The notes under the pieces: model-generated
Told to the model about the DNA's origin: nothing
The model's input: only the letters and a program-made list of their open reading frames with translations
Database searches by the model: none
Shown here: positions 5,132-20,538 of the stretch, piece by piece
How positions within the stretch are numbered: position 1 is the stretch's first letter
Layout of the letters: every line of letters starts with the position of its first letter
Program-made: the position numbers and the translations under genes
Assembly (NCBI GenBank): GCA_963707915.1
Contig: OY970178.1
Span: forward strand, 2,176,001-2,240,000
Direction: 5' to 3'
Length of the DNA: 64,000 nt
Source of the DNA: Candidatus Eiseniibacteriota bacterium
Lineage (GTDB): Bacteria > Eisenbacteria > RBG-16-71-46

Positions 5132-5935
5132 TCAGGCCTGCGCCACCCGTTCCAGCACGGCACGGATCCCGCGCAGCGTGTCGGCGCCCGAGCGGTGGCC
5201 GACGGCGAGCAGCGCGGCGACCGCCCGTCCCAGCACCTTCGCTCCCGGTTTCGGCAACGCCAGCGTCTCCAGCAGCCCCAGCACCGGCTCGGCGTAGAAA
5301 CCCGCCGCTGCGGCGTCGAGCATCTGCGCGGCGAGGCGCGTGGTCCGGGACGTGCCGCGCTCGAGTTCCGCGCTCAGCCGCCGGCGCAGGGTCGCCGCGG
5401 CGCCGGACGCCTCGCTCGCTGCGTCGAGCCCGGCCAGCACGCCCACGATCACGTCGTCGCCCGAGGGCGTGAGCCCCTCGCCCAGCCCGACGAGCGCCGC
5501 GAGCCCGCGGATCTCGCCGCCCGCCCGGAAGCGCGCCAGCGCGGCCTCGATCACCGGTTCGAACGGCCCGGCCGGCGGCGCCGCGCCCGCGTGCCGCGCG
5601 AGAGCGGCCGCCGATGCCGGCAGCGCGCGCAGCCGGCGCCGCAGCCGCAGCTCCACGACCTCGAGCCCGGCGAGTTCGATCTTCAGGGCCCCCACCTGGA
5701 TGACGCCCTGCGAGACGCGCAGCGGCGCGCCCTCGCAGATGCCCGCGAGCTCCGGCACGGCGAGCGGCACGGCGACCGCCCAGGGGTGCAGCGGCGTCTC
5801 CGCGGGCAGGAGTGCGACCAGCGGCCCGTCGTCCAGCAGCAGGTTCACGGCCCGCGCGTGGACCGAGACGACGGAGCCGCGCCGGTCGCCCATCAGCGCC
5901 TCGGCGGCGAAGGGTCCGGCGCGGCGTGCGCTCAT
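5132..5935 (-). CDS. DUF2877 protein (YahE/AllH family)
   Basis: GLGEGLTPSGDDVIVG and GHRSGAD motifs; context with FdrA and DUF1116. Confidence 0.85.
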   Translation of the reverse strand: MSARRAGPFAAEALMGDRRGSVVSVHARAVNLLLDDGPLVALLPAETPLHPWAVAVPLAVPELAGICEGAPLRVSQGVIQVGALKIELAGLEVVELRLRRRLRALPASAAALARHAGAAPPAGPFEPVIEAALARFRAGGEIRGLAALVGLGEGLTPSGDDVIVGVLAGLDAASEASGAAATLRRRLSAELERGTSRTTRLAAQMLDAAAAGFYAEPVLGLLETLALPKPGAKVLGRAVAALLAVGHRSGADTLRGIRAVLERVAQA

Positions 5936-5948
5936 CGGCTGCGACTCG

Positions 5949-6854
5949 CTAGCGCTTCAGCCTGCGCTTCGCCGTCGTCCGCCGGGCCGCGGGATTGCGG
6001 CCGTGCAGTTGCGGCGCGAGCGCCCCGGCGATGTCGCCGTACTTCGTCAGCTTGCACTTCGCCTTGATCTTCATGAGCTTCGCGTAGCGGGCGTCGTCCA
6101 CGAACGCCACGATGCGGGCGATCGAGGACTCGCCGTCCACGAAGCGCCAGGGGAAGCAGCCGATCTGCACGCGCTGGTTGAGCAGCAGGTCGATGTCGCC
6201 GCCCAGGCACTCGGCGTGGATGATGCCGTGGTTGAACATCTCCAGGTGCATCAGCTGGTACTTGCCGTCGTCGAAGAACTCGGCCAGCGGCTTGCCGTAC
6301 TTCGCGCGGAAGTGCGCGTCCGCCTGGCGCGCCTGGCGCGGCATCCAGTCGCGGATGATGGTGTTCATCGGGTGGTCGGCGCTGCCGCAGTCCACGCCGA
6401 TCCAGCGCAGCTTCTTGCGCTTGGCCCACTGGGCGAACTCCCGGTCGGGACCGGGGTGCTTGACCATGTAGGCGATCTCGTCGGCCGTGGGCTGGTCCCA
6501 GCCGTGGTGGTGGAAGCCGGTGTGGATGATGAGGATGTCGCCGGTCCGCACCTCGACCCGCTCCTCGACCATCTTCGAGGTGTAGACGTCGTAGGCGCCG
6601 CACACGTCCGAGAGATCGACCACCGCCGCGTCGTGCACCAGGAAGTCCATGTCGAGCGAGGCGATGTCCTTGCCCGGCGTGTAGAAGTGGATCTCGCCGT
6701 CGAGGTGCGTGCCGAGGTGGTTCGAGTGCGTGAGCAACTGGCCGTTGGCGCCGTTGGGCGCGAGCCGCTTGAAGTACTTGATCTGCAGCGGCTCGTAGGT
6801 CGGCCACGCCGGGGTGGCGATGCCGAGGGGGATGGTCAGGTCGATGAGCTTCAT
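5949..6854 (-). CDS. Cyclase-family metal-dependent hydrolase (kynurenine formamidase/isatin hydrolase-like)
   Basis: LIDLTIPL, NHLGTHLDG metal motif, GDILIIHTG, IGVDCGSADH, HAECLGG; ATG 6854 with GGAGGAG RBS. Confidence 0.9.
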   Translation of the reverse strand: MKLIDLTIPLGIATPAWPTYEPLQIKYFKRLAPNGANGQLLTHSNHLGTHLDGEIHFYTPGKDIASLDMDFLVHDAAVVDLSDVCGAYDVYTSKMVEERVEVRTGDILIIHTGFHHHGWDQPTADEIAYMVKHPGPDREFAQWAKRKKLRWIGVDCGSADHPMNTIIRDWMPRQARQADAHFRAKYGKPLAEFFDDGKYQLMHLEMFNHGIIHAECLGGDIDLLLNQRVQIGCFPWRFVDGESSIARIVAFVDDARYAKLMKIKAKCKLTKYGDIAGALAPQLHGRNPAARRTTAKRRLKR

Positions 6855-6880
6855 GTTCTCCTCCGGGACGTGACGGCGCG

Positions 6881-8334
6881 TCAGGCCTGCGGGGCCGGTG
6901 CGCCGAGCGACTCTGCGAACGCGAGCAGCGCCTGGCGGAAGCACGCGATCGGCGGCTTCACCAGGCCGGCACCGACCATGCCGATGCCGGGCTGCTTGTG
7001 CGCGATGCCGGTGTTGACGACCGGCACGACGCCGCTCTCGACCACCTTGAGCAGGTCGATGCCGGACGCCGTGCCGCGGAAATCGAGCGCCGGGATCTTG
7101 TAGACCGGGTGCTCGGCGAGCGTGATGTCGTACATGCGACGGGTGTAGCCGAGCGCCTGCGCGGCGCTGCCGCCCACGAACTGGACGATGGCGGGCGCGG
7201 CGGCCATGGCCATGCCCCCGAGCCCGGCGGTCTCGGTGATGACCGAGTCGCCGATGTCGGGCGCGGCGTCGGCGGCGCCGAAGCCAGGCAGGTAGAGCCC
7301 GTCCACCATGGGCGCGGGAGCGGTGAACCAGCGGCCCGGCAGGGCCGACACCTGGATGCCGAAGTCGGTGCCGTTGCGCGCCATGACGCTGATCATCGAG
7401 TCGAGCGCGGGATGCCGGCCGCCGGGTCGAGCGAGCACTTGCTCGCCGCCATCGAGAGGTTGAGGAAGAAGTGATCGTTGCCGTCGAGGAAGCGCAGGAC
7501 CGCGGCGATGTCGTCCGTGGCCGCCCGGATGCCGACCAGGTGCGGCGCCAGCGTGCGGATGAGCAGCGAGGTGGCCGCGCGGTTGCGGTTGTGCACCTCG
7601 TCGCCCATCTGCAGCGCCTGGGCGATCACGTTGCGCAGGTCGAGCGGCCCGTGCGCGGCCAGCGCCTCGCGCAGCGCCGGGGCCAGCACCTGCTCCATCC
7701 AGCGCAGGCGGGTGAGCACCTCGTCGTCGTAGGCGCCGTAGCGCAGCACCTTGCCCAGCCCCTCGTTCAGCGTGGAGTAGGCGCGGTTGCCGAACGCCGT
7801 GTTCTCGAGGATCCAGACCGGCATCGAGGCGGTGACCACGCCGGCCATCGGCCCGACGGCGGCGTGGTGGTGGCAGGGCGCGAACGCGACCTTTCCCGAG
7901 GCGGCGAGCCGCGCGGCCTCCTCGGGCGTCCGCGCCAGGCCCTCGTAGACCAGCCCGCCCATCACCGCGCCGCGGGTCGGCCCGCTCATGCGCTCCCACT
8001 CGACCGGCGGACCGGCGTGGAGCACCAGGTCCTTGCGCATGCCGGGGACGACGTCGAGCGCGGTGCCGATGCCGACGATGGTCGGCCGCGCCGCCAGCAG
8101 CCGCTCGACCGACTGGCGGGTCGCCGCGGCGATGTCGGCGCGCACCGCGCCGTCCGCGCCCAGGCAGGCGTCGAGCGCCGCGAGCAGGGCGGGGTCGCCG
8201 CCCGCGGGCGGGCGCCAGTCCACGTCCACCGCGCTGCCTCCGGCGCTGCGCAGGTCGGCCGCGAACGAGGCCAGGCCGACGTTCACCACCGACAACTCCG
8301 CGCCGAAGAGCGCGAGCACCTTCTCGACGTTCAT
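6881..8334 (-). CDS. DUF1116 protein (YahG/YlbE-AllG family); one frameshift near 7400
   Basis: LHAGPP, PCHHHAAVGPMAG, LNEGLGKVLRYGA, MGDEVHNRN in one frame; MARNGTDFG, DIGDSVITET, NTGIAHK in the next. Confidence 0.88.
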
Positions 8335-9868
8335 CGCGCCGCCCTCCCCAGCACCGCCGCGGCGAACCGCGCGGCGCGCCGGTTGTCGGTCTCGACGGTG
8401 ACCCCGGCATCCGCGAGCCGGCGCACCTGCGCGTCGTAGTCCTGCGGGTCCCCGTCGCGTGCCCGTGACCGAGGCGATGGCCACCAGTTCGCGGCCGGGC
8501 GCGCGGCGCCGCGCCTGTTCCACGCCGGCCGCCAGCACGCCCGCCGGGTCCGGGTGCGAGCCGTAGCCGATCACGCAGTCGAAGAGCAGCACGCCGGCCG
8601 CCGCGTCGGCCATCTCGACCGCGAGCCGCTCGTTGCGCAGCCCGGGCTCGATCATCGGGTGCGGCCGCCCGCGCGTGAACACGTCGTCGCCGAGGTCGAG
8701 CAGGACGTGGCCGGCGACGGGCGCCACGCCGTCCACCCGCAGCGCGCCCCTCTTGTGCAGGTTCGAGCGCACCTCGAGCCCGGCGCGGGTCGAGCAGCGC
8801 GAGCGCCTCCTGGCCGGTGGTGCCCCCGCAGAAGAGCGCCTTGAGCGCCGCGCCCGGCCGCAGCAGGGCGGCCGCCGCCGCGACGCAGGACTCGTCCGCG
8901 ATCGCCGGCGGCGGTGCGGAGGCCAGGCCGCTGCGCCGGCACGCCAGCTCCGCCGCGTCGGCCAGCGAGTCGGCGAAGACGATCCCTCGGGCCGCATCCT
9001 CCGCGCGCGGAACGTCTCCGACGAAGTGGACCACGCACGGCTTGCGCGTGGCCGCCAGCGCGTCGACCACCCGCTGCGCCACCTCCGCCGCCGGCGGCTT
9101 CGAGACGACGACGATCACCTTCGTCTCCGGGTCGGCCGCGAGCGCCTCGATGCCGAGCAGCATCATCAGCCCGCCGACCTCGGCCGAGAGATCGCGCCCG
9201 CCCGTGCCGATGGCCTGCGAGACTCCGCCGCCCAGGCGGTGGATGACGCTCGAGACCTCCTGGATGCCCGTGCCCGCCGCGCCCACGATGCCGATCGGCC
9301 CGCGCCGCACGGCGTTGGCGAAGGCCAGCGGCCGGCCGCCCAGGATGGCGGTGCCGCAGTCGGGGCCCATCAGCAGCAACCCGCGCCCGGCCGCCTCCTG
9401 CTTGAGCGCGACCTCGTCGGCGAGCGACACGTTGTCCGAGAAGAGCATCACGTGCCGGCCCAGCGCGAGCGCGCGCCGCGCCTCGCGGGCGGCGTGCTCG
9501 CCGGGCACGGAGATGAGCACCAGGTTCGCCGCAGGGTGGGACGCGACCGCCGCCGCGAGCGACGACGGCCGGGCCTCCTCGCCCGCGCCGGCGTGCGACT
9601 GCGCCTTCAGCAGCCGCTCCAGCTCCGCCTCGACCGCCGCCGGCGAGTCCGCCGCGCCCTTCACCGCGATGAGCAGGTCGTTGGGCGTGGCGCTCGCCAG
9701 CTCGGCGCCGCCGTAGCCCTGCGCGCCGAGCAGGTCGCGGTTCTGCGGCGTGCCCATGGCGACCACCGCGTCCTCGACGCCCGCGAGGCCGCGCAGCGCC
9801 TGCGAGACGCGCATCAGCAGGACCGAGTCGTGATACGAGTCCCTGCGGACCAGGACGAAGGCGGCCAC
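8331..9868 (-). CDS. fdrA: Acyl-CoA-synthetase-like FdrA/YahF (AllF family); frameshifts near 8790 and 8455
   Basis: YHDSVLLM, LISVPG, FSDNV, MGPDCGTA, GTGIQE, GTGGRDL, LFCGGT, DLGDDVFTRGRPHPMIEP, GYGSHPDP; ATGA overlap with the DUF1116 gene. Confidence 0.88.
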
Positions 9869-9878
9869 GTCGCCCCCG

Positions 9879-12759
9879 CTACTTCCGGCTCGCGTCCGTC
9901 GCGGACCCGGCCGGCCGCGCCTTCGCCTCCGCGGCGCGCTTGAGCGTCAGGAAGACGCGCTCCGGATCGAGCGGCAGCTCGAAGAACTCGACGCCGGTGG
10001 CGTTCGCGACCGCGTTGCCCACCGCGCCCGGCACCGAGATCATCGGGTGCTCGGCCACGCCGCGCGCGCCGTAGGGCCCCTGCGGATGCGGCGTCTCGAC
10101 GAAGAACTGCCGCATCTCGGCCGGGATGTCCTTGGCGGTCGGGATCTTGTAGTCGGTGAACGAGTTGTTGAGCAGCCGGCCGTTCTGGAACACGAACTTC
10201 TCCATGACCGCCGAGCCCAGCCCCTGCACCACGCCGCCGATCACCTGCATGCGGCACTGCTGCGCGTTCAGCACCTTGCCCGCGTCGAAGGCCGAGACGA
10301 GCCGGAGCACGCGGATGTGGCCGGTGTCGGTGTCCACCTCGAGCTCGACGGCGTGCGCGCCGTAGGTCCAGTTGAGCGCCGGCAGCCCCTGGCCGGTCTC
10401 GCGGGTCGAGGTTGGTGAGGCCGGTCGCGATGTAGCGGCCCTTGCCGATCACCGGCCCGCCGATGCTGCTGCCGTCGGGGTAGGTGTAGCCCAGCACGAG
10501 CTGGCTGTAGTCGAGCGTGCGGGCGGGCTTGCCCTTCACCCAGACCTTGCCCTCGTCGCACTCGATCTGGTCGGGCGGGGCGTGCAGCGCCTGCCCGGCG
10601 ACATCGCGGATCTGGTCGAGGCACTCCTTCGCCGCCTGGATGACGGCGTTGCCGCCCATCACCGAGAAGCGGCTCGCCACCGTCTGCCAGTCGTAGGGCG
10701 TGTAGTCGGTGTCGCTGTCCCACGGCACGCGCACCTTCTCGAGCGGGAGCCGCAGCTCGTCCGCCGCGATCTGCGCGAGCGCGGTGTAGGTGCCCTGGCC
10801 GTAGTCCACGCCGCTCACCAGCACGTTGGCCGAGCCGTCGCCGTTGAACAGGATGGTGACCGAGCACGAGGTGTAGGTCGGCATGGCCGGCGCCTTGTGC
10901 AGCATCGCCACGCCCTTCGCCCGCACCTTGCCGGAGCCCGGCGCGACCGGCTTCGCCGCGCGCGCCTTCGGATCCCAGCCGATCGCCTCGCTGACCAGCC
11001 GCAGGCACTCCTCGGGCCGGCCGTGGCCCGTCGGTGAACGGCTCGCCGGTGATGGTGGTCTCGCCCACGCGCAGCAGGTTCTTGCGGCGGAACTCGACCG
11101 GGTCGATGCCCAGCGCGCGCGCCACCATGTCCATGTTGCGCTCGATGCCCCACAGCACCTCGAGGTGGCCGAAGCCGCGGTAGGCGGTGCCGTGGATCTT
11201 GTTGGTGTAGACCACCAGGGAGTCGAGTCTTGCAGTTCGGGCACCACGTAGGGCCCGGCGCCGGAGTAGGCCGCCGCGCGCCCGACGTTGACGCCGTAGT
11301 CGGCGAAGGCGCCCGCGTCCCACAGGTAGGTGAGGTCGAGCGCGGTGATGCGGCCGTCCTTCGTCACCCCGGTCTTGATGGTGCTCTGCAGGCCCTGGCG
11401 CGAGGGCAGGGTGTTGAACTCCTCCTCGCGCGTGGCGCTGATCTTCACCGGGCGCCCGCCGGCCGCCTTCGACAGGCAGTAGACCAGCGGCTCGAGGTGG
11501 ATGCCGGCCTTGCCGCCGAAGCCGCCGCCGACGTAGGGCACCCGCACGCGCACCTTGCTCGGGGGCCATGCCGAAGGTGCGGCAGAACAGCGTGCGCACG
11601 GTGAACGGCGACTGGGCCGAGGTGATGATCTCGACCTCGCCGTCGGCCCGCGCGGTGGCGATGGCGACGTGCGTCTCCATCGGCACGTGCTGGACCGGCG
11701 GGTTCTGGAAGCGCGAACTCGAACACGCGGTCCGCCTCGGCCATGCCCTTCTCGACGTCGCCCTTGCGGATCTTCTGGTGGTGGGCGGTGTTGCGGCCCG
11801 GCTGCGGGAAGAACACGCCCTTCATCCACGAGTAGTCCGCCAGGCCGGGGTGCACCTGCGGCGCGCCCTCCTTCAGCGCGGCGTGCACGTCGAGCACCGG
11901 CTCCAGCACCTCGTAGTCGATCTCGATCGCCAGCGTGGCGAGCTTGGCCTGGATCCAGGTCTCCGCCGCCACCGCCGCCACCGCCTCGCCCTGGTGGTGC
12001 ACCACGCCGCGGGCGAGGATGTCCTTGTCCTCCATGTAGAGCCCGAGCTTGTAGGGCAGGTCGGCGCCGGTGAGCACCGCCTTCACCCCCGGCATCGCCT
12101 TCGCCTTCGACACGTCGATGCGCCGGATGCGCGCCGAGGGGTGCGGCGAGGTGAGGATGCGGCCGTGCAGCATGCCCGTCCAGCACCATGTCGTGCACGA
12201 ACGTCGCCGAGCCCGTCACCTTGGCCGCGGCGTCCACGCGGTTGACCTCGCCGCCCACGTAGGGCGCGGTGGGCGCCGCCTTCGCGCGGTAGTTCCCCTT
12301 CGCCACCGCCTCGACCGCTTCGATGATGGGCTGGTAGCCGGTGCAGCGACAGTAGTTCCCCGAGAGCGCCTCGACGATCTCGTCGCGCGTCGGGTTGGGC
12401 TTGCGCTTCAGCAGCGCGCGCGCGGAGGCCAGCATGCCCGGCGTGCAGAAGCCGCACTGGATCGCGCCGTGGTCCACGAACGCCTGCTGCAGGGCGGAGA
12501 GCGTGCCCGGCTCGCCGTTCTCGGCCTCGGCGGTCTCGATGACCGCGCCGTCGGCCTCGACCGCGAACACCAGGCAGGAGTTCACCGGCTTGCCGTCCAG
12601 GATCACCGTGCACAGCCCGCACTCGCCGATGTAGCAGCCCGACTTCACGCTGTGCTGGTGCAGGTCCTCCGACAGCAGCTGGTGCAGCGTGCGGTCGGCC
12701 GGGACCTCGAGCGTCGAGGTCTCGCCGTTCACCGTCAGGGTGATGCGGTGGAGGCTCAT
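9879..12759 (-). CDS. Xanthine dehydrogenase-family Mo-hydroxylase: 2Fe-2S subunit fused to molybdopterin-binding subunit; about 6 frameshifts
   Basis: GCYIGECGLCTV and QCGFCTPG...CRCTGY Fe-S motifs run in frame into RVDAAAKVTG; later segments carry GGGFGGK, AYRGFG, GQGTYT, TDYKIPT and GARGVAE (catalytic Glu). Confidence 0.88.
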
Positions 12760-13608
12760 GACGGCCTCCCCGTCGCCGAGCAGCCGGCGCGCGAGCCGGC
12801 GGCACAGCACGGCGGTCATCTCGCGCCGGTACTCGGCCGAGGCCCGCACGTCGTCGATCGGCAGGATGTGCTCCAGGGCCAGCGCGGCGAGGCGCTCGCC
12901 CACGTCCTTCGGGTCCGACCGGGGCCCCACCCCGGCGAGCGCCGGCACCAGCGCCGGCCGCACCGCGCACGAGCCGATCGCCACGCGCAGCGTGCCCGCG
13001 ACCGGGTCCCAGGCGGCGGCCGAGTTCACGATCGCCAGGTCGTGCCCGTACGAGCGCTTGATCTTGTCGAACGCGCTGGTCAGCCCCGCCGGCCGGCTTC
13101 GGCACGACCACCGCCGTCACCAGCTCGCCGGGGGCGAGCGCGGTCTGCTTGACGCCCAGGAAGAAGTCCGCGAGCGGCGCCTCGCGCGTCCCCTGCGGGC
13201 CCGCGACCCGCAGCCGTCCGTTCAGCACCAGCAGCGGCGGGGCGGTGTCCATGCAGGGCGAGGCGTTCGAGAGGTTCCCGGCGACGGTGGCCCGCCAGCG
13301 GATCTGCAGCGAGCCGATCGCCTCCGCGCCCTCCGCGAGCGCGGTGAAGGCCTCGCGGATGCGCCGTCCTCGGCCACGTCCTGCACCCGCACGCAGGCGC
13401 CGATCTCCAGCTCGCCCGCCGGCGTCCAGGTGATCCTCCCCAGCTCGGGGATGCGCTTGATGTCCACCAGCACGTCGGGTCGCGGACCGCCGCGCAGCGC
13501 GATCATCAGGTCGGTCCCGCCGGCCAGGATCCTCGCGCCCGCCGGCCCGGCCAGCAGCGCGGTGGCCTCGGCCACCGTGCCCGGTCTCTCGTAGCGGAAG
13601 CCACTCAT
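12760..13608 (-). CDS. FAD-binding (medium) subunit of XDH/CODH-family enzyme; frameshifts near 13362 and 13080
   Basis: YERPGTVAEA, LAGGTDL, VDIKRIPEL, RATVAGNLSNASP, PIDDVRASAEYRR; no stop before the Fe-S ATG in this sequence. Confidence 0.85.
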
Positions 13609-13693
13609 GGTCTCTTCTCCCCTGCGGTCCACGGTCCGGAACGCCGGTGCGCCCGCGGTCGCGAGCGCGCCGCGGGGCACCGGGCGCTTCCGG

Positions 13694-14033
13694 CTAGACG
13701 GCGGTGAAAACCAGCCCGGTGATGTCCTTGCCGTTGGTCTCGCGCACCTTGCCGACGTGCGCCCGCACGCGCGCGCCGGTCTTCGGCTCGGCGATCTCCA
13801 GCCGGCCGGTCGCCCGCACCCCCATGTCCAGCTCGACGATGCCGAGCGTGACGTAGAGCTGGGCGTAGTCCAGCGGCAGCGCGTAGACGCGCGTCCAGGT
13901 CAGCAGCTTGCCCTCGCCCTCGACCGGGACCGGCTCGAACTGGGTGCCGCGGCAGGACGGGCAGTAGAAGTGCGTCGGATACGACGAGCTTGCCGCAGTT
14001 CTTGCACTTGGCGGCTTCGACGTTCATGGCCAT
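13694..14033 (-). CDS. DUF35 Zn-ribbon/OB-fold protein; frameshift near 13983
   Basis: KCKNCGK...YPTHFYCPSC...GEGKLLTWT...LGIVELD after frame correction; adjacent to a thiolase-fold gene. Confidence 0.85.
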
Positions 14034-14034
14034 G

Positions 14035-15222
14035 TCACACCCCCCGCTTGAGCACGGTGGCGACGACGTTGTTGCCGAAGCCGCCGAAGTTCACGGCGAA
14101 GCCGTGCTTCGGCTGGTTCGGCACCTGGTAGTCGCCCGCCTCGCCGCGCAGCTGCAGCACCAGCTCCACGATCTGCGACACGCCGGTGTTGCCCACGGGA
14201 TGCCCGCGCGACTTGAGCCCGCCCGACGGGTTGATGGGCAGCTTCCCGCCGATCTTCGTCTCGCCCCGCTCGAGCGCCTTGTGGCCCTCGCCCTTCTTGA
14301 AGAAGCCGCACTCCTCGCTCTCGGCGATCTCGAGGATGGTGAAGGCGTCGTGCAGCTCGGCCACGTCGATGTCCTTCGGCTTGAGCTTCGCCATGGCGAA
14401 CGCCCGCTCCGCCGCCATCCGCACCGCGGTCAGCTCGGTCGGGTCGGGCCGGTCCTGCACCGCCTGCGAGTCGGTCGCCTGGCCCATGCCGGCGATCAGC
14501 ACCGGCGTCTTCTTGAACTCCTTCACCATGTCGGCCGGGGCCAGCAGCACCGCCGAGGAGCCGTCGCTCACCGGGCAGCAGTCGAAGAAGCGCAGCGGCT
14601 CGGCGATCCACGGGTTGTTGTTGAGCGCGTCCGGCCCGGTCAGGATGCCCTCCATCGTGACCGGGATGCGCAGGTGCGCCTTCTTGTTCTTCGCGCCGTT
14701 GAGGTGGTTCTTGATCGCCACCATCGCCAGGTGCCGGGCCTCGACCCCGTAGCGCTCCATGTACAGGCGCGTGAACATCCCCGCCAGCGCGGGCAGCGTC
14801 ACGCCGTAGACGTACTCGGCGTAGCGGTGCGAGAGGTACGAGACGAACTCGGTCGCCTCGAAGTTGTTGACCTCCTGCATGCGCTCGCCGCCGCACACCA
14901 GCACCAGGTCGCAGTAGCCCGAGGCCACGGAGTGCACGCCGTGCTTGATGGCCGAGGCGCCCGAGGCCGGGCCGTTCTCGATGGTCTCGGAGACCGCGTG
15001 CGGGTACAGGTTCATCCGGTCGACGAGCCCGCTGGACAGGCCGGCCATGCGGTTGTTGCGCGGGGCGCCCATGTTGGCGACGTAGACCGCGTCGATCTTC
15101 CGCTCGCCGATGCCGGCGTCCACGATGGCGTCGTGCGAGGCCTCGCACATCATCTTGAGCAGGCTCCACTGGGCCCGCCCGAACTGCGTCGAGCCCACGC
15201 CGACGATGGCCACGTCCCTCAT
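14035..15222 (-). CDS. Thiolase-fold protein (SCP2/archaeal type) lacking the nucleophilic Cys
   Basis: VAIVGVGST, DCCPVSDG, AELHDAF, INPSGGLKSRGHPVG; ENGPASG replaces the usual ENACASG. Confidence 0.9.
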   Translation of the reverse strand: MRDVAIVGVGSTQFGRAQWSLLKMMCEASHDAIVDAGIGERKIDAVYVANMGAPRNNRMAGLSSGLVDRMNLYPHAVSETIENGPASGASAIKHGVHSVASGYCDLVLVCGGERMQEVNNFEATEFVSYLSHRYAEYVYGVTLPALAGMFTRLYMERYGVEARHLAMVAIKNHLNGAKNKKAHLRIPVTMEGILTGPDALNNNPWIAEPLRFFDCCPVSDGSSAVLLAPADMVKEFKKTPVLIAGMGQATDSQAVQDRPDPTELTAVRMAAERAFAMAKLKPKDIDVAELHDAFTILEIAESEECGFFKKGEGHKALERGETKIGGKLPINPSGGLKSRGHPVGNTGVSQIVELVLQLRGEAGDYQVPNQPKHGFAVNFGGFGNNVVATVLKRGV

Positions 15223-15968
15223 ATGCGGGCCTCCAGCGTGTTCTCGATCTGGGTCAGCATCACGCGCAGGTCCGGCTCGCGCAGCGGGTAGGACGAGGCC
15301 AGCAGCTCGGCGGAGACCGGGCGCGTGCCCGTGACCAGCCGCGACTTGGCCTTGAAGTAGGTGTCGCGGGTCAGCACCCAGGCCGGCGCGCCGCCCAGCT
15401 CGTGCTGCACCTCGAACTTCTTGTCGAGCGGGTACTCGATCATCCAGCGACGGTGGCCGATCGGGCTCTCGGCCACGATCCAGACCTCGTCCTGGCCCAG
15501 GTACTCGATGTGGTGCTCCATCTTCGAGGCGAACAGGTGCGAGCCCACCCGCAGCCCGCGCTTGAGCGTCAGCGTGTGGAACGAGACGCCGTGCTTCTCG
15601 TCGAACAGCCGGCCGTTCACGATGCCGGCCAGCACGCCGTCGATCACCCCGACCAGGCAGTACTCGTTGCGCACGCGGTAGGTCTTCCAGCCCAGCAGCT
15701 CGGCGAACAGGCGGGCCGAGACGATGTCGTAGAAGTCGCGGCTCAGCCAGGAGAGCGGCTGGATGACCTTGAGCATCAGGTCCACCTCGTCCACCGAGGC
15801 CTGGCGCACGACCATGGTCTCGCCGCTCGCGAGCAGGACGGCCTTGGGGGGATAGGGGGCCATGGGCAGCACCGGTGGCCGCAACATGGCCTCGAGTTCG
15901 TCGATCATGCGCTCCTCCTCGGAGGTGAGGTACTCGTCGGCATCCCAGTCGTAGACAGGGGGGCTCAT
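15219..15968 (-). CDS. Putative GNAT-like N-acyltransferase / conserved hypothetical protein
   Basis: 249-aa ORF with strong GC3 codon bias; CLVGVIDGVLAGIV and TLKRGLRVGSHLF resemble GNAT strands and motif A; ATGA overlap with the thiolase. Confidence 0.65.
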   Translation of the reverse strand: MSPPVYDWDADEYLTSEEERMIDELEAMLRPPVLPMAPYPPKAVLLASGETMVVRQASVDEVDLMLKVIQPLSWLSRDFYDIVSARLFAELLGWKTYRVRNEYCLVGVIDGVLAGIVNGRLFDEKHGVSFHTLTLKRGLRVGSHLFASKMEHHIEYLGQDEVWIVAESPIGHRRWMIEYPLDKKFEVQHELGGAPAWVLTRDTYFKAKSRLVTGTRPVSAELLASSYPLREPDLRVMLTQIENTLEARI

Positions 15969-16231: not shown

Positions 16232-19200
16232 TCAGCGAACGATCACGGCCCGGGCCGTCAACCTGCGGCTGCCCCTTGCCAGGCGCACCAGGTACACGCC
16301 CGGTGCCAGCGAGCGTCTCTCTCCCAACTGCACCACGTGACTGCCGCCACCGAGCGGTCCGACCTCCCGCACCGCCACCCGGCGTCCGGCCAGGTCGAAC
16401 GCCTCCAGCCGCGCCGGCGCGGCATCGGGCAGCGAGAACGCCACCGCCAGCGCCACCGTCGCCGGGTTCGGGCACACCCCGGCGAGCGCCAACTCCGCGA
16501 CGCGCGGCACGTCCACCCAGGTCTCGCCCGCGAAGACCTCCCGTCCCTGGTCGAGCACGCCGAGCCGGTAGCCGTATCGCGTGCCCGGGGTCACCTGCCG
16601 GTCCTCGTAGACGACCAGCCCGGTCCCGTCCGCGGAGACGCTGCCAAGCGCGCTCCACGCTGCGTCGGCCACGCGCCGGTACACCGTCACGGCGCCACCA
16701 TCGCCGCCCGCCGTGTACCACGTCAGGCGCACCCGGTCCGGGTCGGCCAGCGCGCTCACCAGCGAGAGCAGCACCGGCGTGGACACGTCGTGGAGGTTGT
16801 GAGAGCAGGTGACGTGCTGCGGCAGGCCGCGCAGCGTCACGCGGAAGACCAGCGGGTTCAGGCCGTTCGCCGCGCTGTCCGGCACCGGGACCGAGAGGGG
16901 GACCGGCGCCGTGCCGTCCGCGCCGACCACGACGCTCCCCGAGACCGGGAAGCCGGGCCAGTCGCGTCCGCTCGCGAGCGTGTAGTCGGCGGTCTGCGCG
17001 AAGGCGTAGGGGTTGGTGACGCCGTAGCCGAGGTCACTGCTCGCTCCCGCCGTCCACACGACGTCCGCAGGGCAGGTCACGCCGGCCAGGGCGGGCGCGC
17101 CCCAGGTCAGCGACCGGATCTCGCTGCATGGGTTCGCGACCCAGCCGCCGACGAGCATCATGCGATCGCGCAGCGGATCGTAGATCGCGCTGTGGCCGTA
17201 CCGCGCGTTCGGCGGTGAGCCGGAGGGAGTCAGTTGCGTCCACTCGGGCGTGCCCGCCAGCGAGAGGGCCCAGACGTCGTCGAGGGGGTGCTCGCCGCCG
17301 CCCCCGAACACCACCATGCGGTCGCGCACCGGGTCGTAGATCGCGCTGTGGCACATTCGCGCGCCCGGCGGCGTGCCGGTGGGCGTCAACTGCATCCAGG
17401 CCGGCGCGCCGGCCAGCGAGAGGGCCCAGACGTCGTTGAGGCGGTAGTCGCCGTAGCCCCCGAACACCACCATGCGGTCGCGCACCGGGTCGTAGATCGC
17501 GCTGTGGCACATTCGCGCGCCCGGCGACGTGCTGTAGGGAGTCAGGTCCGTCCACCTGGGTGTGCCCGCCAGTGACAACGCCCAGACATCGTCGAGGCGG
17601 ATGTCCCCGCTGTCGTCGCCCCCGAACACCACCATGCGATCGCGCACCGGGTCGTAGATCGCGACGAGGCCGACCCGGCCGACCGGGGGCGCGCCCGTGG
17701 GCGTCAGTCTCGTCCAGGCCGGGGTGTCCCCCATGGACAGTGACCATACGTCGTTCCGGAATTCGGCCGATCCGTCGAGGCCCCCGAACACGACCATTCG
17801 CTCGCGCACCGGGTCGTAGATCGCGCTGTGGAGGCACCGCGCGCTCGGCCGCGTGCCCGTCGGTTCCAGCGCCGTCCAGGTCGGCTTGTCCGCCGGCGAC
17901 AGCGACCAGACGTCATTGAAGGTGGCCGAGGCCCCATCACCTCCGAACACGACCATGCGGTCGCGCACCGGATCGTAGATCGTGCTGTGGAGGAACACCC
18001 CGGGCTGGGAATGGGAACCGGTCCAGGCCAGCGTGTCCGCCAGCGACAATGCCATGACGTCGTTGTAGTAGGCGTACCAAGGGGAGAGCCTGGCGACGCC
18101 CGCGAACACCAGCATGCGGTCGCGCACCGGATCGTAGATGGCGCCGTGACCGGCCCGCGCACCCGGCAACGTGCCGTCGGGTGCCAGCGCCGTCCACGCC
18201 GACGTGCCTGCGAGTGGGAACGCCCAGGTGTCTTCGAGCAGGCCGTCGAGGCCCGTACCCCCGAACACGATCATGCGGTCACGCACCGGGTCGTACACGG
18301 CGCTGTGGGCAAGCCGTGCGCCCGGCGAGGCTCCGTTCGGCGACAGCATCGTCCAGGCCGCCGTGCCCGCCAGCGGCAATGCCCAGGCGTCCCCGTAGGA
18401 GTAGTTCGCAGGGTAGGCGCCGGCGCCACCCCCGAACACCACCATGCGGTCACGCACCGGGTCGTAGATCGCGCTGTGGAGGTACCGTCCGCCCGGCGTG
18501 GTCGGGGAGTTCGGCAGCGCCGTCCAGCCCGGCGTGCCCCCCAGTGACAGCGCCCAGACGTCGTTGTACCAGCGCCAATCGTCATAGCCCCCGAACACCA
18601 CCATGCGGTCGCGCACCGGGTCGTAGATCGCGCTGTGCCCGTAACGCGCGTTCGGCAGCGAACCGGACGGGGTCAACAGCGTCCACTCGGTCGTGTCCCC
18701 CAGCGACAACGTCCAGACGTCGTTGCGGCGGTAGCCGTCGAAGCCTCCGAACACCACCATGCGGTCGCGCACCGGGTCGTAGATGGCGGTGTGGGAATAG
18801 CGCGCGCTCGGCGGCGTGCCGTCGGGCGTCAACTGGGTCCAGGCCGGCGCGCCCGCCAGCGTGAGCGCCCAGACGTCGTTGCGGGCGGAACCGTCGTAGC
18901 CCCCGAACACCACCATGCGGTCGCGCACCGGATCGTAGACCGCGCTCGGGTAGTCCCGCGCGCTCATCGGGCTGACCGGGATGATTCCCGGGTCGGGCTC
19001 GGACCACGAACCGTCGTCCGCCGCCGGAGCGCGGGTCGGGGGGGCCGGGCGGGTGTCGGTCGCAGGAGGACGGAGCGCCGACGGATCGCTCCCGCGCGCC
19101 AGGCGCATCATGAGTGCGCGCTGCCAGCGCGGCAGCAGCGTGTCGGCCGCTGCTAGCGCCAGTCCCTGGCGCGCTTCGGGCGCCAGCGACGGCACGCCCG

Positions 19201-19300
19201 GGAGTCCGGGCTGGCCGGAAGCGGCGACCGGGACCGCCAGGAAGAGGAGGAGGAGCGCGAGGACCCGGGCGGGGGCGCGGAACGGATGCGGCGGCCTCAT
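16232..19300 (-). CDS. Secreted Kelch-repeat beta-propeller protein with C-terminal FlgD/T9SS-like tail
   Basis: Signal peptide; 12 repeats of HSAIYDPVRDRMVVFGG...DVWxL...W; C-terminal PNP...LEAFDLAGRRV...PGVYLVRL. Confidence 0.9.
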   Translation of the reverse strand: MRPPHPFRAPARVLALLLLFLAVPVAASGQPGLPGVPSLAPEARQGLALAAADTLLPRWQRALMMRLARGSDPSALRPPATDTRPAPPTRAPAADDGSWSEPDPGIIPVSPMSARDYPSAVYDPVRDRMVVFGGYDGSARNDVWALTLAGAPAWTQLTPDGTPPSARYSHTAIYDPVRDRMVVFGGFDGYRRNDVWTLSLGDTTEWTLLTPSGSLPNARYGHSAIYDPVRDRMVVFGGYDDWRWYNDVWALSLGGTPGWTALPNSPTTPGGRYLHSAIYDPVRDRMVVFGGGAGAYPANYSYGDAWALPLAGTAAWTMLSPNGASPGARLAHSAVYDPVRDRMIVFGGTGLDGLLEDTWAFPLAGTSAWTALAPDGTLPGARAGHGAIYDPVRDRMLVFAGVARLSPWYAYYNDVMALSLADTLAWTGSHSQPGVFLHSTIYDPVRDRMVVFGGDGASATFNDVWSLSPADKPTWTALEPTGTRPSARCLHSAIYDPVRERMVVFGGLDGSAEFRNDVWSLSMGDTPAWTRLTPTGAPPVGRVGLVAIYDPVRDRMVVFGGDDSGDIRLDDVWALSLAGTPRWTDLTPYSTSPGARMCHSAIYDPVRDRMVVFGGYGDYRLNDVWALSLAGAPAWMQLTPTGTPPGARMCHSAIYDPVRDRMVVFGGGGEHPLDDVWALSLAGTPEWTQLTPSGSPPNARYGHSAIYDPLRDRMMLVGGWVANPCSEIRSLTWGAPALAGVTCPADVVWTAGASSDLGYGVTNPYAFAQTADYTLASGRDWPGFPVSGSVVVGADGTAPVPLSVPVPDSAANGLNPLVFRVTLRGLPQHVTCSHNLHDVSTPVLLSLVSALADPDRVRLTWYTAGGDGGAVTVYRRVADAAWSALGSVSADGTGLVVYEDRQVTPGTRYGYRLGVLDQGREVFAGETWVDVPRVAELALAGVCPNPATVALAVAFSLPDAAPARLEAFDLAGRRVAVREVGPLGGGSHVVQLGERRSLAPGVYLVRLARGSRRLTARAVIVR
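17100..18965 (-). repeat. 12 tandem coding repeats of about 155-170 bp (Kelch blades)
   Basis: Recurring GAACACCACCATGCGGTCGCGCACCGGGTCGTAGA core on the + strand; 17301-17370 and 17457-17526 are identical. Confidence 0.9.
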
Positions 19301-19435: not shown

Positions 19436-20332
19436 CTACCGCAGGAACAGCACCACCACCCCCGCCACCGCCACCAGCGCGCCGGCGAGGGTCCGCAGGC
19501 TCAGGCGTTCGCCGTGGAAGCGCGCCGAGAGCAGCAGGGTCAGCACCGGGTAGATGGCGGTGATCGAGGCGGCCACGCCGGCCTCGATGTACTTGAGCGC
19601 GGTGAGCGACAGGGTGACGCCCATGAACGGCCCGAAGAAGGCCCCGCCCACCATGAAGCCCGAGGCCCGGCCGTCGCGCAGGGCGCCCAGCGTGCGGCGC
19701 ACGTCGCGCTGGAGCGCGGCCAGCAACCAGATCCCGACCGCGGCCGCCACGATGCGGACCACGGTCGCCGAGAGCGGATCGAGATCCGAACGCAGCGCCA
19801 TCTTCGACAGCACGTAGCCGCCCGCCTGCCCCACCGCGGCCAGCACCCCCGCCACCACGCCGACGAGCGCCGAGCCTTCGACGTGCGCCTTCGCCGGTTG
19901 CTCGCGCTCCCAGATCACCCAGCCGATGCCGCCCAGCGTGAGCGCCATCCCGAGCAGGATGAGCGGCCCGGGGTGCTCGCCCAGCAGCGGCCACGCGAGC
20001 AACGCCGTGAAGATGGGCGCCGTCGAGGTGACCAGCGCCGCCCGCCCGGGGCCGATGATGACGAGCGAGCGGAAGTAGTAGGTGTCGCCGAAGACAAAAC
20101 CCACGAGACCGCTCAGCGCGAGCAGCCCGACCTGCCACGGGGTCGCCCACACCGGCCAGGGGGAGCCGCGCAGCACCAGCAGCGCCGTGCACAGCAGCAG
20201 CGCGGCCACGCTGATGCGCAGCCGGTTGAGCACCACCGATCCCATGCGCTGCCCGGCGGCGGCGAAGAAGTTGGAGCCGGCCGCCCAGCACACGGCGGTG
20301 CCGAGCGCGGCGAATTCGCCAGCGAATCTCAC
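19436..20332 (-). CDS. DMT/EamA family transporter
   Basis: About 10 hydrophobic helices in two EamA halves (LSGLVGFVFGD, GPFMGVTLS, GERLS); GTG start with AGGAGG RBS. Confidence 0.9.
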   Translation of the reverse strand: MRFAGEFAALGTAVCWAAGSNFFAAAGQRMGSVVLNRLRISVAALLLCTALLVLRGSPWPVWATPWQVGLLALSGLVGFVFGDTYYFRSLVIIGPGRAALVTSTAPIFTALLAWPLLGEHPGPLILLGMALTLGGIGWVIWEREQPAKAHVEGSALVGVVAGVLAAVGQAGGYVLSKMALRSDLDPLSATVVRIVAAAVGIWLLAALQRDVRRTLGALRDGRASGFMVGGAFFGPFMGVTLSLTALKYIEAGVAASITAIYPVLTLLLSARFHGERLSLRTLAGALVAVAGVVVLFLR

Positions 20333-20538
20333 GGGGCGCTCCTCCTGCGAAGGGGAGAGGCAAGGTACCCGAGCGGGAGCTTCGGAGGCCAGTCGGCGCG
20401 CGGCCGTGCGACCGGGGCGCGAGAGAGAGCGCGCTGGTCGCGCGTTCCGCGGCGTTCGCCCGATGACCCGCCGCTTGCCGCTGCGCACGTGGGAGGATGG
20501 AGCCCTCATCCAGCCGGGCGGAGATCCACGGAACCCAT

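Follow-up and report, generated by a model that had tools for sequence, protein, structure and literature searches.

The stretch of DNA analysed here, hereafter the window, comprises 64,000 nucleotides (nt) from the genome of a Candidatus Eiseniibacteriota bacterium (contig OY970178.1) and carries a cassette of nine genes in which a molybdenum (Mo) hydroxylase is combined with relatives of the Escherichia coli carbamoyltransferase AllFGH, a cyclase-family hydrolase, and three proteins of the GNAT, thiolase, and DUF35 types. The host genome (G000; genomes are denoted by G and loci by L) is a single contig of 3.62 Mb, 94.8% complete, with ~72% G+C. Between 5.1 and 16.0 kb of the window the coding signal, read from the phase of G+C at third codon positions (GC3), lies on the minus strand only. 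The cassette extends from the stop codon of AllH at 5132 to the ATG of its first gene, GNAT-like, at 15968, exactly the limits given by the initial annotation. Pfam and NCBIfam profile scans of the stop-to-stop frames, as well as of intact orthologues, identify the genes as follows, from first to last:

15219..15968, minus strand: GNAT-fold protein of 249 amino acids (aa), first gene; no Pfam or NCBIfam family, assigned by a fold model
14035..15222, minus strand: thiolase-fold protein without the nucleophilic Cys (Thiolase_N/Thiolase_C_1); no frame break
13694..14033, minus strand: DUF35 protein (zinc ribbon and OB fold; PF01796, OB_ChsH2_C); +1 insertion near 13984 affects the N-terminus
12756..13608, minus strand: FAD subunit of the xanthine dehydrogenase (XDH) family (FAD_binding_5 over two frames, CO_deh_flav_C); breaks near 13364 (-1) and 13091 (+1)
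9879..12759, minus strand: fused 2x[2Fe-2S] and molybdopterin (FeS-Moco) subunit (Fer2, Fer2_2, Ald_Xan_dh_C or hammerhead, MoCoBD_1/2)
8331..9868, minus strand: FdrA/AllF-like subunit (CoA_binding, Ligase_CoA; NF004760); breaks near 8789 and 8456
6881..8334, minus strand: AllG-like subunit (PF06545, formerly DUF1116); +2 insertion near 7399
5949..6854, minus strand: cyclase-family metal-dependent amidohydrolase of 301 aa (PF04199), between AllG and AllH; no frame break
5132..5935, minus strand: AllH-like subunit of 267 aa, last gene (PF11392, formerly DUF2877; 78.3 bits)

The junctions and domain scans bear out the earlier description of nine co-oriented genes joined by ATGA overlaps or gaps below 90 nt. 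Overlaps of this type occur at three junctions (GNAT-like/thiolase, FAD/FeS-Moco, and FdrA/AllG), and the remaining junctions have gaps of 1, 85, 10, 26, and 13 nt. The start of the FeS-Moco subunit is uncertain (12759 to about 12820), and its gene has frame breaks near 12173, 11713, 11564, 11241/11227, 11031, and 10399. In the following, the GNAT/thiolase/DUF35 trio is referred to as module A and the Mo-hydroxylase/FdrA/AllG/cyclase/AllH block as module B.

Synteny of the gene set is conserved in 5/5 close relatives and in genomes annotated to many phyla; G001, G004, G019, and G025 have the same gene order, G008 a permuted one. Species-representative genomes contain at least 543 confirmed relatives of the GNAT-like gene among at least 599 pattern matches, all in metagenome-assembled genomes (MAGs). 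Among the matches listed, the carriers are labelled Eisenbacteria, Bipolaricaulota, 'Thermotogae', Sumerlaeota, Chloroflexota, Atribacteria, Spirochaetota, Armatimonadota, Vulcanimicrobiota, and others; these phylum labels are those of the MAG records, some of which may be mis-binned. In the 80 GNAT-like loci that were kept, many of which end at contig ends, the thiolase gene adjoins in 78 and the DUF35 gene in 74, and within ~10 kb the genes for FAD subunit, FeS-Moco subunit, FdrA, AllG, cyclase, and AllH are present in 33, 33, 27, 25, 23, and 18 loci, respectively.

Many trios in Bipolaricaulota and 'Thermotogae' have unrelated neighbours and no other block within 10 kb, which might suggest that modules A and B are unrelated and that their proximity in the window is accidental. 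We consider this extremely improbable, since the modules are joined in at least four different arrangements (collinear, divergent, Mo-FdrA-AllG-cyclase-GNAT-thiolase-DUF35, and the permutation of G008) and AllG is encoded elsewhere in 5/5 trio-only genomes; three of these have the whole FAD-FeS-Moco-FdrA-AllG-cyclase operon at a separate site, on another contig or at a distance of 23-66 kb, and in two of the three an AllH match accompanies it. It is further contradicted by a near-perfect co-occurrence at the genome level in two phyla, where the association of the GNAT-like gene with an AllG of the cassette type holds as had been expected from the window. Among 151 genomes of the own phylum, 17 contain the GNAT-like gene and 16 AllG; both occur together in 16, AllG alone in none, and neither in 134. 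The contig of the single trio-only genome ends inside FdrA, and 10 of the 72 genera include carriers. Of 121 Bipolaricaulota genomes, all 26 with a full-length, high-scoring AllG contain the GNAT-like gene, the other GNAT-positive genomes being three with AllG fragments at contig ends and two without AllG, and cassette-class AllG is found in 0/90 of the GNAT-negative genomes. Clustering of all flanking open reading frames (ORFs) for a universal accessory gene yielded nothing beyond shadow ORFs antisense to cassette genes and synteny confined to single clades, and the flank censuses contained no universal transporter or regulator. The cassette is a widespread, uncharacterised, and presumably catabolic one of uncultured bacteria labelled as many phyla, whose two modules are always found together in a genome, and we regard it as highly probable that the nine genes form one functional unit.

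The frameshifts to which the initial annotation alluded are real in this assembly: compared with the 92%-identical relative G004, ~12 frame-breaking indels, nearly all +1 insertions, lie at 7399-13984, and the GNAT-like, thiolase, cyclase, and AllH genes are free of them. Raw indel density against G004 (2.49/kb elsewhere, 2.37/kb in the operon block) does not separate compensated gaps from errors in one genome or the other, and was replaced by a GC3-phase test that assigns frame-breaking events to G000 or G004 in 16 sampled 20-kb regions; 105 events were too weak in signal to be assigned and 76 were in-frame. In the 11-kb operon block, 11 events are assigned to G000, of which ten are insertions and all lie outside homopolymers, whereas the 138 kb sampled elsewhere in G000 contain 13 patchily distributed events (ten insertions, three deletions), seven of which fall in one 7-kb block of capsule/exopolysaccharide (EPS) genes. 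G004 has 20 phase events of its own in other patches (e.g., nine in one 9-kb block). Patches of insertion-type frameshifts are therefore a feature of both few-contig MAGs, G000 and G004, and gene calls there need care.

Bacterial gene decay is expected to be deletion-biased, and insertions outside homopolymers are typical of an uncorrected long-read consensus. Read in the G004 frame, the broken genes contain zero stop codons, and their ratio of non-synonymous to synonymous substitution rates (dN/dS) against G004 is 0.15-0.33, compared to 0.12-0.23 in unbroken neighbours. The cassette genes are unbroken in the relatives, and in short-read metagenome contigs of related populations the inserted bases are absent wherever these positions are covered. 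Because of the insertion bias, the low dN/dS without stops, and the intact relatives, the frame breaks in the G000 operon are very likely consensus errors of the assembly, and the operon is for this reason probably functional in G000. The split of the carbamate kinase homologue of G000 over two frames (G000:C1:1655259-1656183; 263 + 91 bits, cut-off 358) is a further sign of indel errors in this assembly.

The competing explanation, that the operon of G000 is a recently decayed pseudogene cluster with genuine breaks while the cassette works in relatives, draws on the break density, which is 11-fold higher in the operon than in the 138 kb elsewhere, and on the accessory nature and patchy distribution of the operon in which the breaks lie. 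A second dense patch, the only other one in G000, likewise lies in accessory genes, which keeps recent decay in consideration; the hope that this patch would fall in essential genes failed, and as capsule/EPS genes it is uninformative. Moreover, the metagenome contigs are short, mostly 90-99% alike, and come from relatives rather than from this strain, and hence demonstrate intact versions of the genes rather than an error of this assembly; public sequencing runs contain at most 0.23 of the sampled words. Decay is nevertheless improbable, as ten of the 11 breaks are insertions of one or two bases outside homopolymers, the opposite of the expected deletion bias, as the broken genes resemble the unbroken ones in dN/dS and lack stops, and as the few-contig MAGs G004, G019, and G044 have comparable patches of breaks in other genes.

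The Mo hydroxylase possesses the complete set of domains of the XDH family (FAD_binding_5, 2x[2Fe-2S], hammerhead, MoCoBD_1/2), with an FAD subunit that in the intact orthologue has 286 aa and contains FAD_binding_5 and CO_deh_flav_C only. The nearest solved relatives of the Mo subunit are the aldehyde oxidoreductase of D. gigas (353 bits), the alpha subunit of 4-hydroxybenzoyl-CoA reductase (301 bits; CoA, coenzyme A), and bovine XDH (286 bits), and the distances of the subunit from aldehyde oxidoreductase, 4-hydroxybenzoyl-CoA reductase, xanthine dehydrogenase, quinoline oxidoreductase, and nicotinate dehydrogenase are about equal. In bovine numbering, the equivalent of the catalytic Gln767 is present in 33/33 cassette Mo subunits and that of Glu1261 in 31/31 where this position is covered. 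Glu802 and Arg880 are needed for xanthine binding in xanthine dehydrogenases; in the cassette, both equivalents are Ala in 32/33 subunits, with an Arg at 879, and all NCBIfam equivalogs for XDH score far below their cut-offs. Since the pocket signature Gln767/Ala802/Arg879/Ala880/Arg912/Phe914 is identical in 31/33 subunits across phyla and the two Ala residues are nearly invariant, the sequences indicate an enzyme with one conserved specificity that is of a non-xanthine type.

In E. coli, AllFGH is established as an oxamate carbamoyltransferase, which converts oxalurate and phosphate to oxamate and carbamoyl phosphate (PMC11326118), and this premise of the initial annotation is correct. The three subunit families of that enzyme (FdrA, PF06545, and PF11392) are encoded together in the cassette, as they are in AllFGH and in its uncharacterised paralogue YahEFG, and the large subunits are 41-47% identical. 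FdrA matches NF004760 with 362 + 129 bits over two frames (intact orthologue 487, cut-off 433) and is 41% identical to AllF and 43% to YahF. The PF06545 match of AllG is likewise split over two frames (positions 1-164 and 164-215) and unbroken in relatives, with a score of 330 bits in the intact orthologue; the protein is 45% identical to AllG and 47% to YahG, and shares an N-terminal extension with YahG. The AllH-like gene adjoins the cassette in 5/5 relatives checked. The proposed YahF/G/E type of the complex is weakly favoured by this slight difference in identity and the shared extension. In the AllG tree 25/26 cassette sequences form one clade (92/88), E. coli AllG stands outside on a long branch, and a weakly supported branching places YahG near the base of the cassette clade. 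The homology to AllFGH makes it probable that the cassette complex, too, forms carbamoyl phosphate by phosphorolytic cleavage of an N-carbamoyl amide. The genomic setting differs: the E. coli operon contains a catabolic carbamate kinase gene, allK, and lies next to allB/C/D/E, whereas the cassette has neither, inserts a cyclase-family hydrolase between AllG and AllH, and is always coupled to the Mo hydroxylase and the trio. Membership in AllFGH thus holds for the subunit families, not for the operon context or for clear orthology.

A second class of AllG/FdrA paralogues, with lower-scoring AllG and independent of the cassette, is found in Bipolaricaulota (L122-L125, in G042, G189, G163, and G196). 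There, the FdrA-AllG unit lies beside genes for a Bmp/PnrA-type binding protein and an ABC transporter, with an AllH match and a PucR regulator in 1/3 loci, a setting similar to that reported for allFGH in nitrifier MAGs (PMC12625717). The AllG of this context forms a clade separate from that of the cassette (100/100 support).

The hydrolase between AllG and AllH matches PF04199 with 100.8 bits (cut-off 23.1), and its translation contains H-x-G-T-H-x-D-x-x-x-H, which is the metal motif of this cyclase family, of the kynurenine formamidase/isatin hydrolase type. With 42-48 bits against TIGR03035 (cut-off 223) it is no arylformamidase equivalog. The carbamate kinase homologue of G000 is encoded ~520 kb from the cassette. 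In the own phylum, carbamate kinase is present in 17/17 cassette-positive genomes compared to 92/134 negative ones, and within the own family in 9/9 compared to 17/51.

The second protein of the cassette reaches 405.9 bits against NF004720 (cut-off 420), and its nearest solved relatives are archaeal acetoacetyl-CoA thiolases (7yvy, 269 bits; 6esq/6et9, 239 bits). Alignment to these confirms the Cys-less 'ENGP' thiolase recognised in the window: the archaeal nucleophile motif E-A-A-C-A-S-G is E-N-G-P-A-S-G in the cassette protein, and the Cys-to-Pro exchange is found in 49/49 aligned orthologues. As this exchange and the motifs HDAF, GHP, and NFGGFGN are invariant in the 49 sequences, the active site appears conserved rather than decayed. 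The protein has the fold and domains of a thiolase and lacks the Cys that would form the acyl-enzyme. Its closest structural counterpart, the archaeal thiolase/HMG-CoA synthase/DUF35 channelling complex (6esq, 6et9), has a small DUF35 zinc-ribbon/OB partner and a third enzyme encoded alongside, as does the cassette; the latter, known here from genes, differs in the Pro at the nucleophile position and in having a GNAT-fold protein in place of the HMG-CoA synthase. A comparable loss of thiolytic capacity in a thiolase fold with a DUF35 partner, acting on CoA-ester enolates, is described for the aldolases Ltp2/Sal with ChsH2/Shy, whose catalytic Tyr lies in a YDHF/YDCY motif (PMC12329534). Membership in this group was rejected, because the Tyr is replaced by the invariant His of HDAF, although enolate chemistry in general is retained; similarity to 6ok1 amounts to 119 bits, far below that to the archaeal thiolases, and the genomic context is nucleobase-related rather than steroid-related. 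With both the nucleophilic Cys and the catalytic Tyr absent, the protein is neither a thiolase nor an aldolase of the Ltp2/Sal type. A Cys at residue 216 (window ~14575-14577, in F-D-C-C-P-V-S-D-G) is invariant in the 49 sequences and Ser in 7yvy and 6esq; it could be a relocated catalytic residue. The DUF35 protein has four zinc-ribbon Cys that are invariant in 41 sequences, and its intact orthologue matches both PF01796 and PF12172, the copy in the window PF01796; the +1 insertion near 13984 is absent from related contigs.

The protein of the first gene was described as GNAT-like, which is upheld by its predicted fold and finds no counterpart in sequence families: neither it nor its intact orthologue has a Pfam or NCBIfam match, and a sequence search of the PDB gave chance matches only (E 1.2). 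An AlphaFold2 (AF2) model from 57 sequences has a pLDDT of 87 and a pTM of 0.83, and replaced a first model from six sequences that was discarded (pLDDT 58). With this model, Foldseek found 228 PDB matches at E<=0.001, the top listed all being GNAT or GNAT-like, and VIA-align gave top Z scores of 13.8 and 13.6 and 208 chains at Z>=8. The alignment of the 57 sequences has 55 invariant columns. The canonical CoA-binding motif of GNAT proteins is Q/R-x-x-G-x-G/A, to which the equivalent stretch K-R-G-L-R-V-G-S fits only partially. The family is compact, with 211 representatives at E<=0.001 among 1.84 billion proteins, and its atlas neighbours are automatically named N-acetyltransferase without sharing a Pfam family. 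Judged by the model, the protein has a GNAT fold and stands outside the described sequence families.

Of the 85 loci examined together with their flanks, three from three phyla have neighbours related to uracil. In L093, an equivalog-level uridine phosphorylase (282.5 bits, cut-off 280.3) is encoded 31 nt upstream of the GNAT-like gene, in L031 a gene of the cytosine deaminase subfamily (381 bits, cut-off 438) lies between DUF35 and FdrA, and in L100 two NCS2 permeases, best-scoring as uracil permease, lie beside AllH. L031 (2500-18500), from an Actinomycetota-labelled MAG, is a variant cassette that also contains a GntR regulator, an F420-type LLM oxidoreductase, a dihydropyrimidinase/allantoinase-like amidohydrolase, and a TRZ/ATZ-type deaminase; its Mo subunit is distant (29% identity) and has a different pocket. 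The genome of L093 (G045) carries, apart from the trio beside the uridine phosphorylase gene, a lone AllG without FdrA or cyclase within 10 kb (L101; G045:C5:80524-81903), which is flanked by a beta-eliminating lyase of the tryptophanase type and a class-V aminotransferase. In a clade of 'Thermotogae' and Bipolaricaulota (L041, L048, L064, and L071), genes for purine-nucleoside phosphorylase, glutamate dehydrogenase (GDH), and then the trio are co-directional; L057, from the same clade as L041, starts inside GDH. Genes for allantoinase, allantoate amidohydrolase, and ureidoglycolate dehydrogenase were not found among the flanking genes scanned, in line with their reported absence from the window.

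Taken together, we propose that the cassette encodes an undescribed anaerobic route for uracil or thymine that would yield carbamoyl phosphate, a reading to which we assign a probability of roughly 0.5. The Mo enzyme would hydroxylate a nucleobase ring without O2, most likely turning uracil or thymine into (5-methyl)barbiturate; the cyclase-family hydrolase would open this ring to an N-acylurea, ureidomalonate, from which the AllFGH-like complex would form carbamoyl phosphate and malonamate with phosphate. An unlinked carbamate kinase could then convert carbamoyl phosphate to ATP. Within this scheme, the release of carbamoyl phosphate from an N-acylurea is the part that the homologies make rather probable, and the identification of the substrate as uracil or thymine has close to an even chance. 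Only tentatively do we assign the trio a role in handling the C3 acyl residue as a CoA thioester, by analogy to related folds: it may form a DUF35-scaffolded complex, like the archaeal thiolase/HMG-CoA synthase/DUF35 complex, that performs enolate chemistry without an acyl-enzyme, for example the decarboxylation of a malonyl-type thioester to acetyl-CoA. A C3 malonyl-type residue would fit better than a C2 oxalyl one because the enolate-stabilising His is kept and the acyl-enzyme nucleophile is absent. Decarboxylation of malonyl thioesters is known both from Cys-less ketosynthases and from GNAT-fold enzymes. In its most extended and speculative form, which we consider doubtful, the cassette would serve an energy-conserving pyrimidine fermentation, in which uracil or thymine is converted via barbiturate and ureidomalonate to carbamoyl phosphate, giving one ATP via carbamate kinase, and malonamate, and a novel DUF35-scaffolded GNAT/Cys-less-thiolase complex converts the latter to acetyl- or propionyl-CoA, CO2, and NH3, giving a second ATP, the uphill exchange of amide for thioester being pulled by decarboxylation.

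The proposed route would share its first oxidising step and the intermediates barbiturate and ureidomalonate with the oxidative pyrimidine pathway. The actinobacterial uracil/thymine dehydrogenase is itself a Mo/FAD/Fe-S hydroxylase. As outlined for aerobic actinobacteria, the classical pathway proceeds by uracil/thymine dehydrogenase, barbiturase (EC 3.5.2.1, AtzD family), and ureidomalonase (PMC3758960). In place of this barbiturase, the cassette would use a cyclase-family hydrolase; where the oxidative pathway hydrolyses to urea and malonate, it would phosphorolyse to carbamoyl phosphate; and it adds a CoA-linked trio and occurs in uncultured hosts. These hosts we take to be anaerobes. A search for the AtzD/TrzD barbiturase family (PF09663) gave no match in G000 and was also silent in all 14 control genomes, its sensitivity being unproven. 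No description of the gene set and no characterised pathway matching it emerged from a literature search that largely did not extend to subscription journals, and within this coverage the suggestion that the pathway is new stands. With synteny and genome-level co-occurrence also borne out, all comparative predictions of the initial annotation held.

Several points weigh against the uracil/thymine route. The hints at uracil come from 3/85 loci, most loci having no informative neighbour, and four loci (L041, L048, L064, and L071) have an equivalog-level purine-nucleoside phosphorylase and a glutamate dehydrogenase upstream of the trio. A xanthine-phosphoribosyltransferase (XPRT)-like gene and a GMP synthase gene (GuaA) lie downstream in L051. 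Uridine phosphorylase was not found in G000, which contains a dihydropyrimidinase/D-hydantoinase equivalog (G000:C1:737554-738915; 594 bits, cut-off 393), and a reductive pyrimidine or hydantoin route may already coexist there with the cassette. Carbamate kinase was linked to the cassette in none of the loci examined and is common anyway (109/151 genomes, in which relatives are not independent). Ring opening and deamidation of malonamate both act on amide bonds, and the cassette offers a single hydrolase for the two steps; moreover, we know of no precedent for a GNAT protein that makes a thioester from an amide. The chemistry of hydroxylation, ring opening, phosphorolysis, and CoA processing is itself read from the genes.

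The substrate could instead derive from purines, as the initial annotation considered equally open, with the Mo enzyme oxidising a purine or imidazole-type ring (e.g., towards parabanate), the cyclase, as a relative of isatin hydrolase, opening a vicinal-dicarbonyl ring to oxalurate, and the complex acting as a genuine oxamate carbamoyltransferase. Oxalurate is the substrate of the one AllFGH-family member that has been characterised, a purine-nucleoside phosphorylase gene precedes the trio in one clade, the XPRT-like and GuaA genes lie downstream in L051, and the Bipolaricaulota paralogue of AllG is associated with a Bmp/PnrA-type protein, ABC genes, and, in 1/3 loci, PucR, a regulator of purine catabolism. 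We nevertheless judge this route rather improbable, and the evidence tilts against xanthine: the two residues of the xanthine pocket are Ala in nearly all Mo subunits, genes related to uracil occur at three unrelated loci, cassette AllG clusters neither with E. coli AllG nor with the paralogue of the Bmp context, allantoin-pathway genes were not seen in the flanks scanned, and a C2 oxalyl-type product would leave the enolate site of the thiolase fold without a substrate. The ring might also be another N-heterocycle or cyclic ureide (hydantoins, dihydro-oxo-pyridines, pterins, or creatinine-derived rings) beside which the nucleobase genes are incidental, given that the Mo subunit is about equidistant from five characterised subfamilies, that most loci lack an informative neighbour, and that the Actinomycetota variant contains several different amidohydrolases and an F420-type oxidoreductase. 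This is unlikely in view of the informative neighbours, which all concern nucleosides or nucleobases, of the step catalysed by the AllFGH-like complex, which requires an N-carbamoyl amide and restricts the candidate rings, and of the occurrence of the cassette in at least 500 uncultured species, which argues for a ubiquitous substrate.

In a quite different scheme, FdrA/AllG/AllH would be an ADP-forming acyl-CoA synthetase, the thiolase and DUF35 proteins would act as in BbsAB, and the Mo enzyme would act on a CoA ester, like 4-hydroxybenzoyl-CoA reductase or 2-furoyl-CoA dehydrogenase. FdrA does contain CoA_binding and Ligase_CoA domains, the alpha subunit of 4-hydroxybenzoyl-CoA reductase is the third-best solved relative of the Mo subunit at 301 bits, the GNAT, thiolase, and DUF35 families all handle CoA esters, and BbsA and BbsB are among the weak NCBIfam matches. 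A CoA-thioester pathway is still very improbable, and the reading as a 4-hydroxybenzoyl-CoA-reductase-like enzyme was rejected. HcrB carries an extra Fe-S insertion, of which the ordinary FAD subunit gives no sign, the thiolase lacks the Cys required for thiolysis of the BbsB type, and aromatic-CoA genes were not seen flanking the cassette. Purified E. coli AllFGH is moreover reported to be a carbamoyltransferase acting on carbamoyl phosphate and oxamate (PMC11326118).

Upstream of the cassette, one further gene of the window was identified by tblastn with its G004 orthologue:

19439..20404, minus strand: EamA/DMT-family transporter (PF00892)

In same-genus relatives, this gene lies directly upstream of the cassette, and in L017, L019, L020, and L021 it lies beside the GNAT-like gene; it may be an accessory of the cassette. 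In the window, the two are separated by a gene for a Kelch-repeat protein of 1022 aa (16232-19300, minus strand), which looks inserted, since the cassette and the EamA gene adjoin each other in G004. A Kelch + FlgD_ig gene is likewise found upstream of the GNAT-like gene in the relative L018.

The cassette consists of known families in an undescribed combination and is probably a type of nucleobase catabolic operon. If the proposed route is true, hundreds of uncultured species share an unrecognised gain of ATP and nitrogen from the nucleobases of decaying cells, and the cassette holds candidate genes for an oxygen-independent uracil/thymine hydroxylase, for a barbiturate hydrolase outside the AtzD family, and for a phosphorolytic substitute for ureidomalonase. 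To our knowledge, no gene has been assigned to some steps of the oxidative-pyrimidine type, and the fermentation reading, if true, would supply genes for them. The newly defined AllFGH carbamoyltransferase family would be extended to a second substrate, and a novel DUF35-scaffolded complex built on a thiolase without nucleophile would represent a new catalytic use of the thiolase fold. Should the substrate prove to be another, the cassette would still be a well-delimited biochemical target, as its nine genes, whose specificity is mostly unknown, are strictly inherited together.

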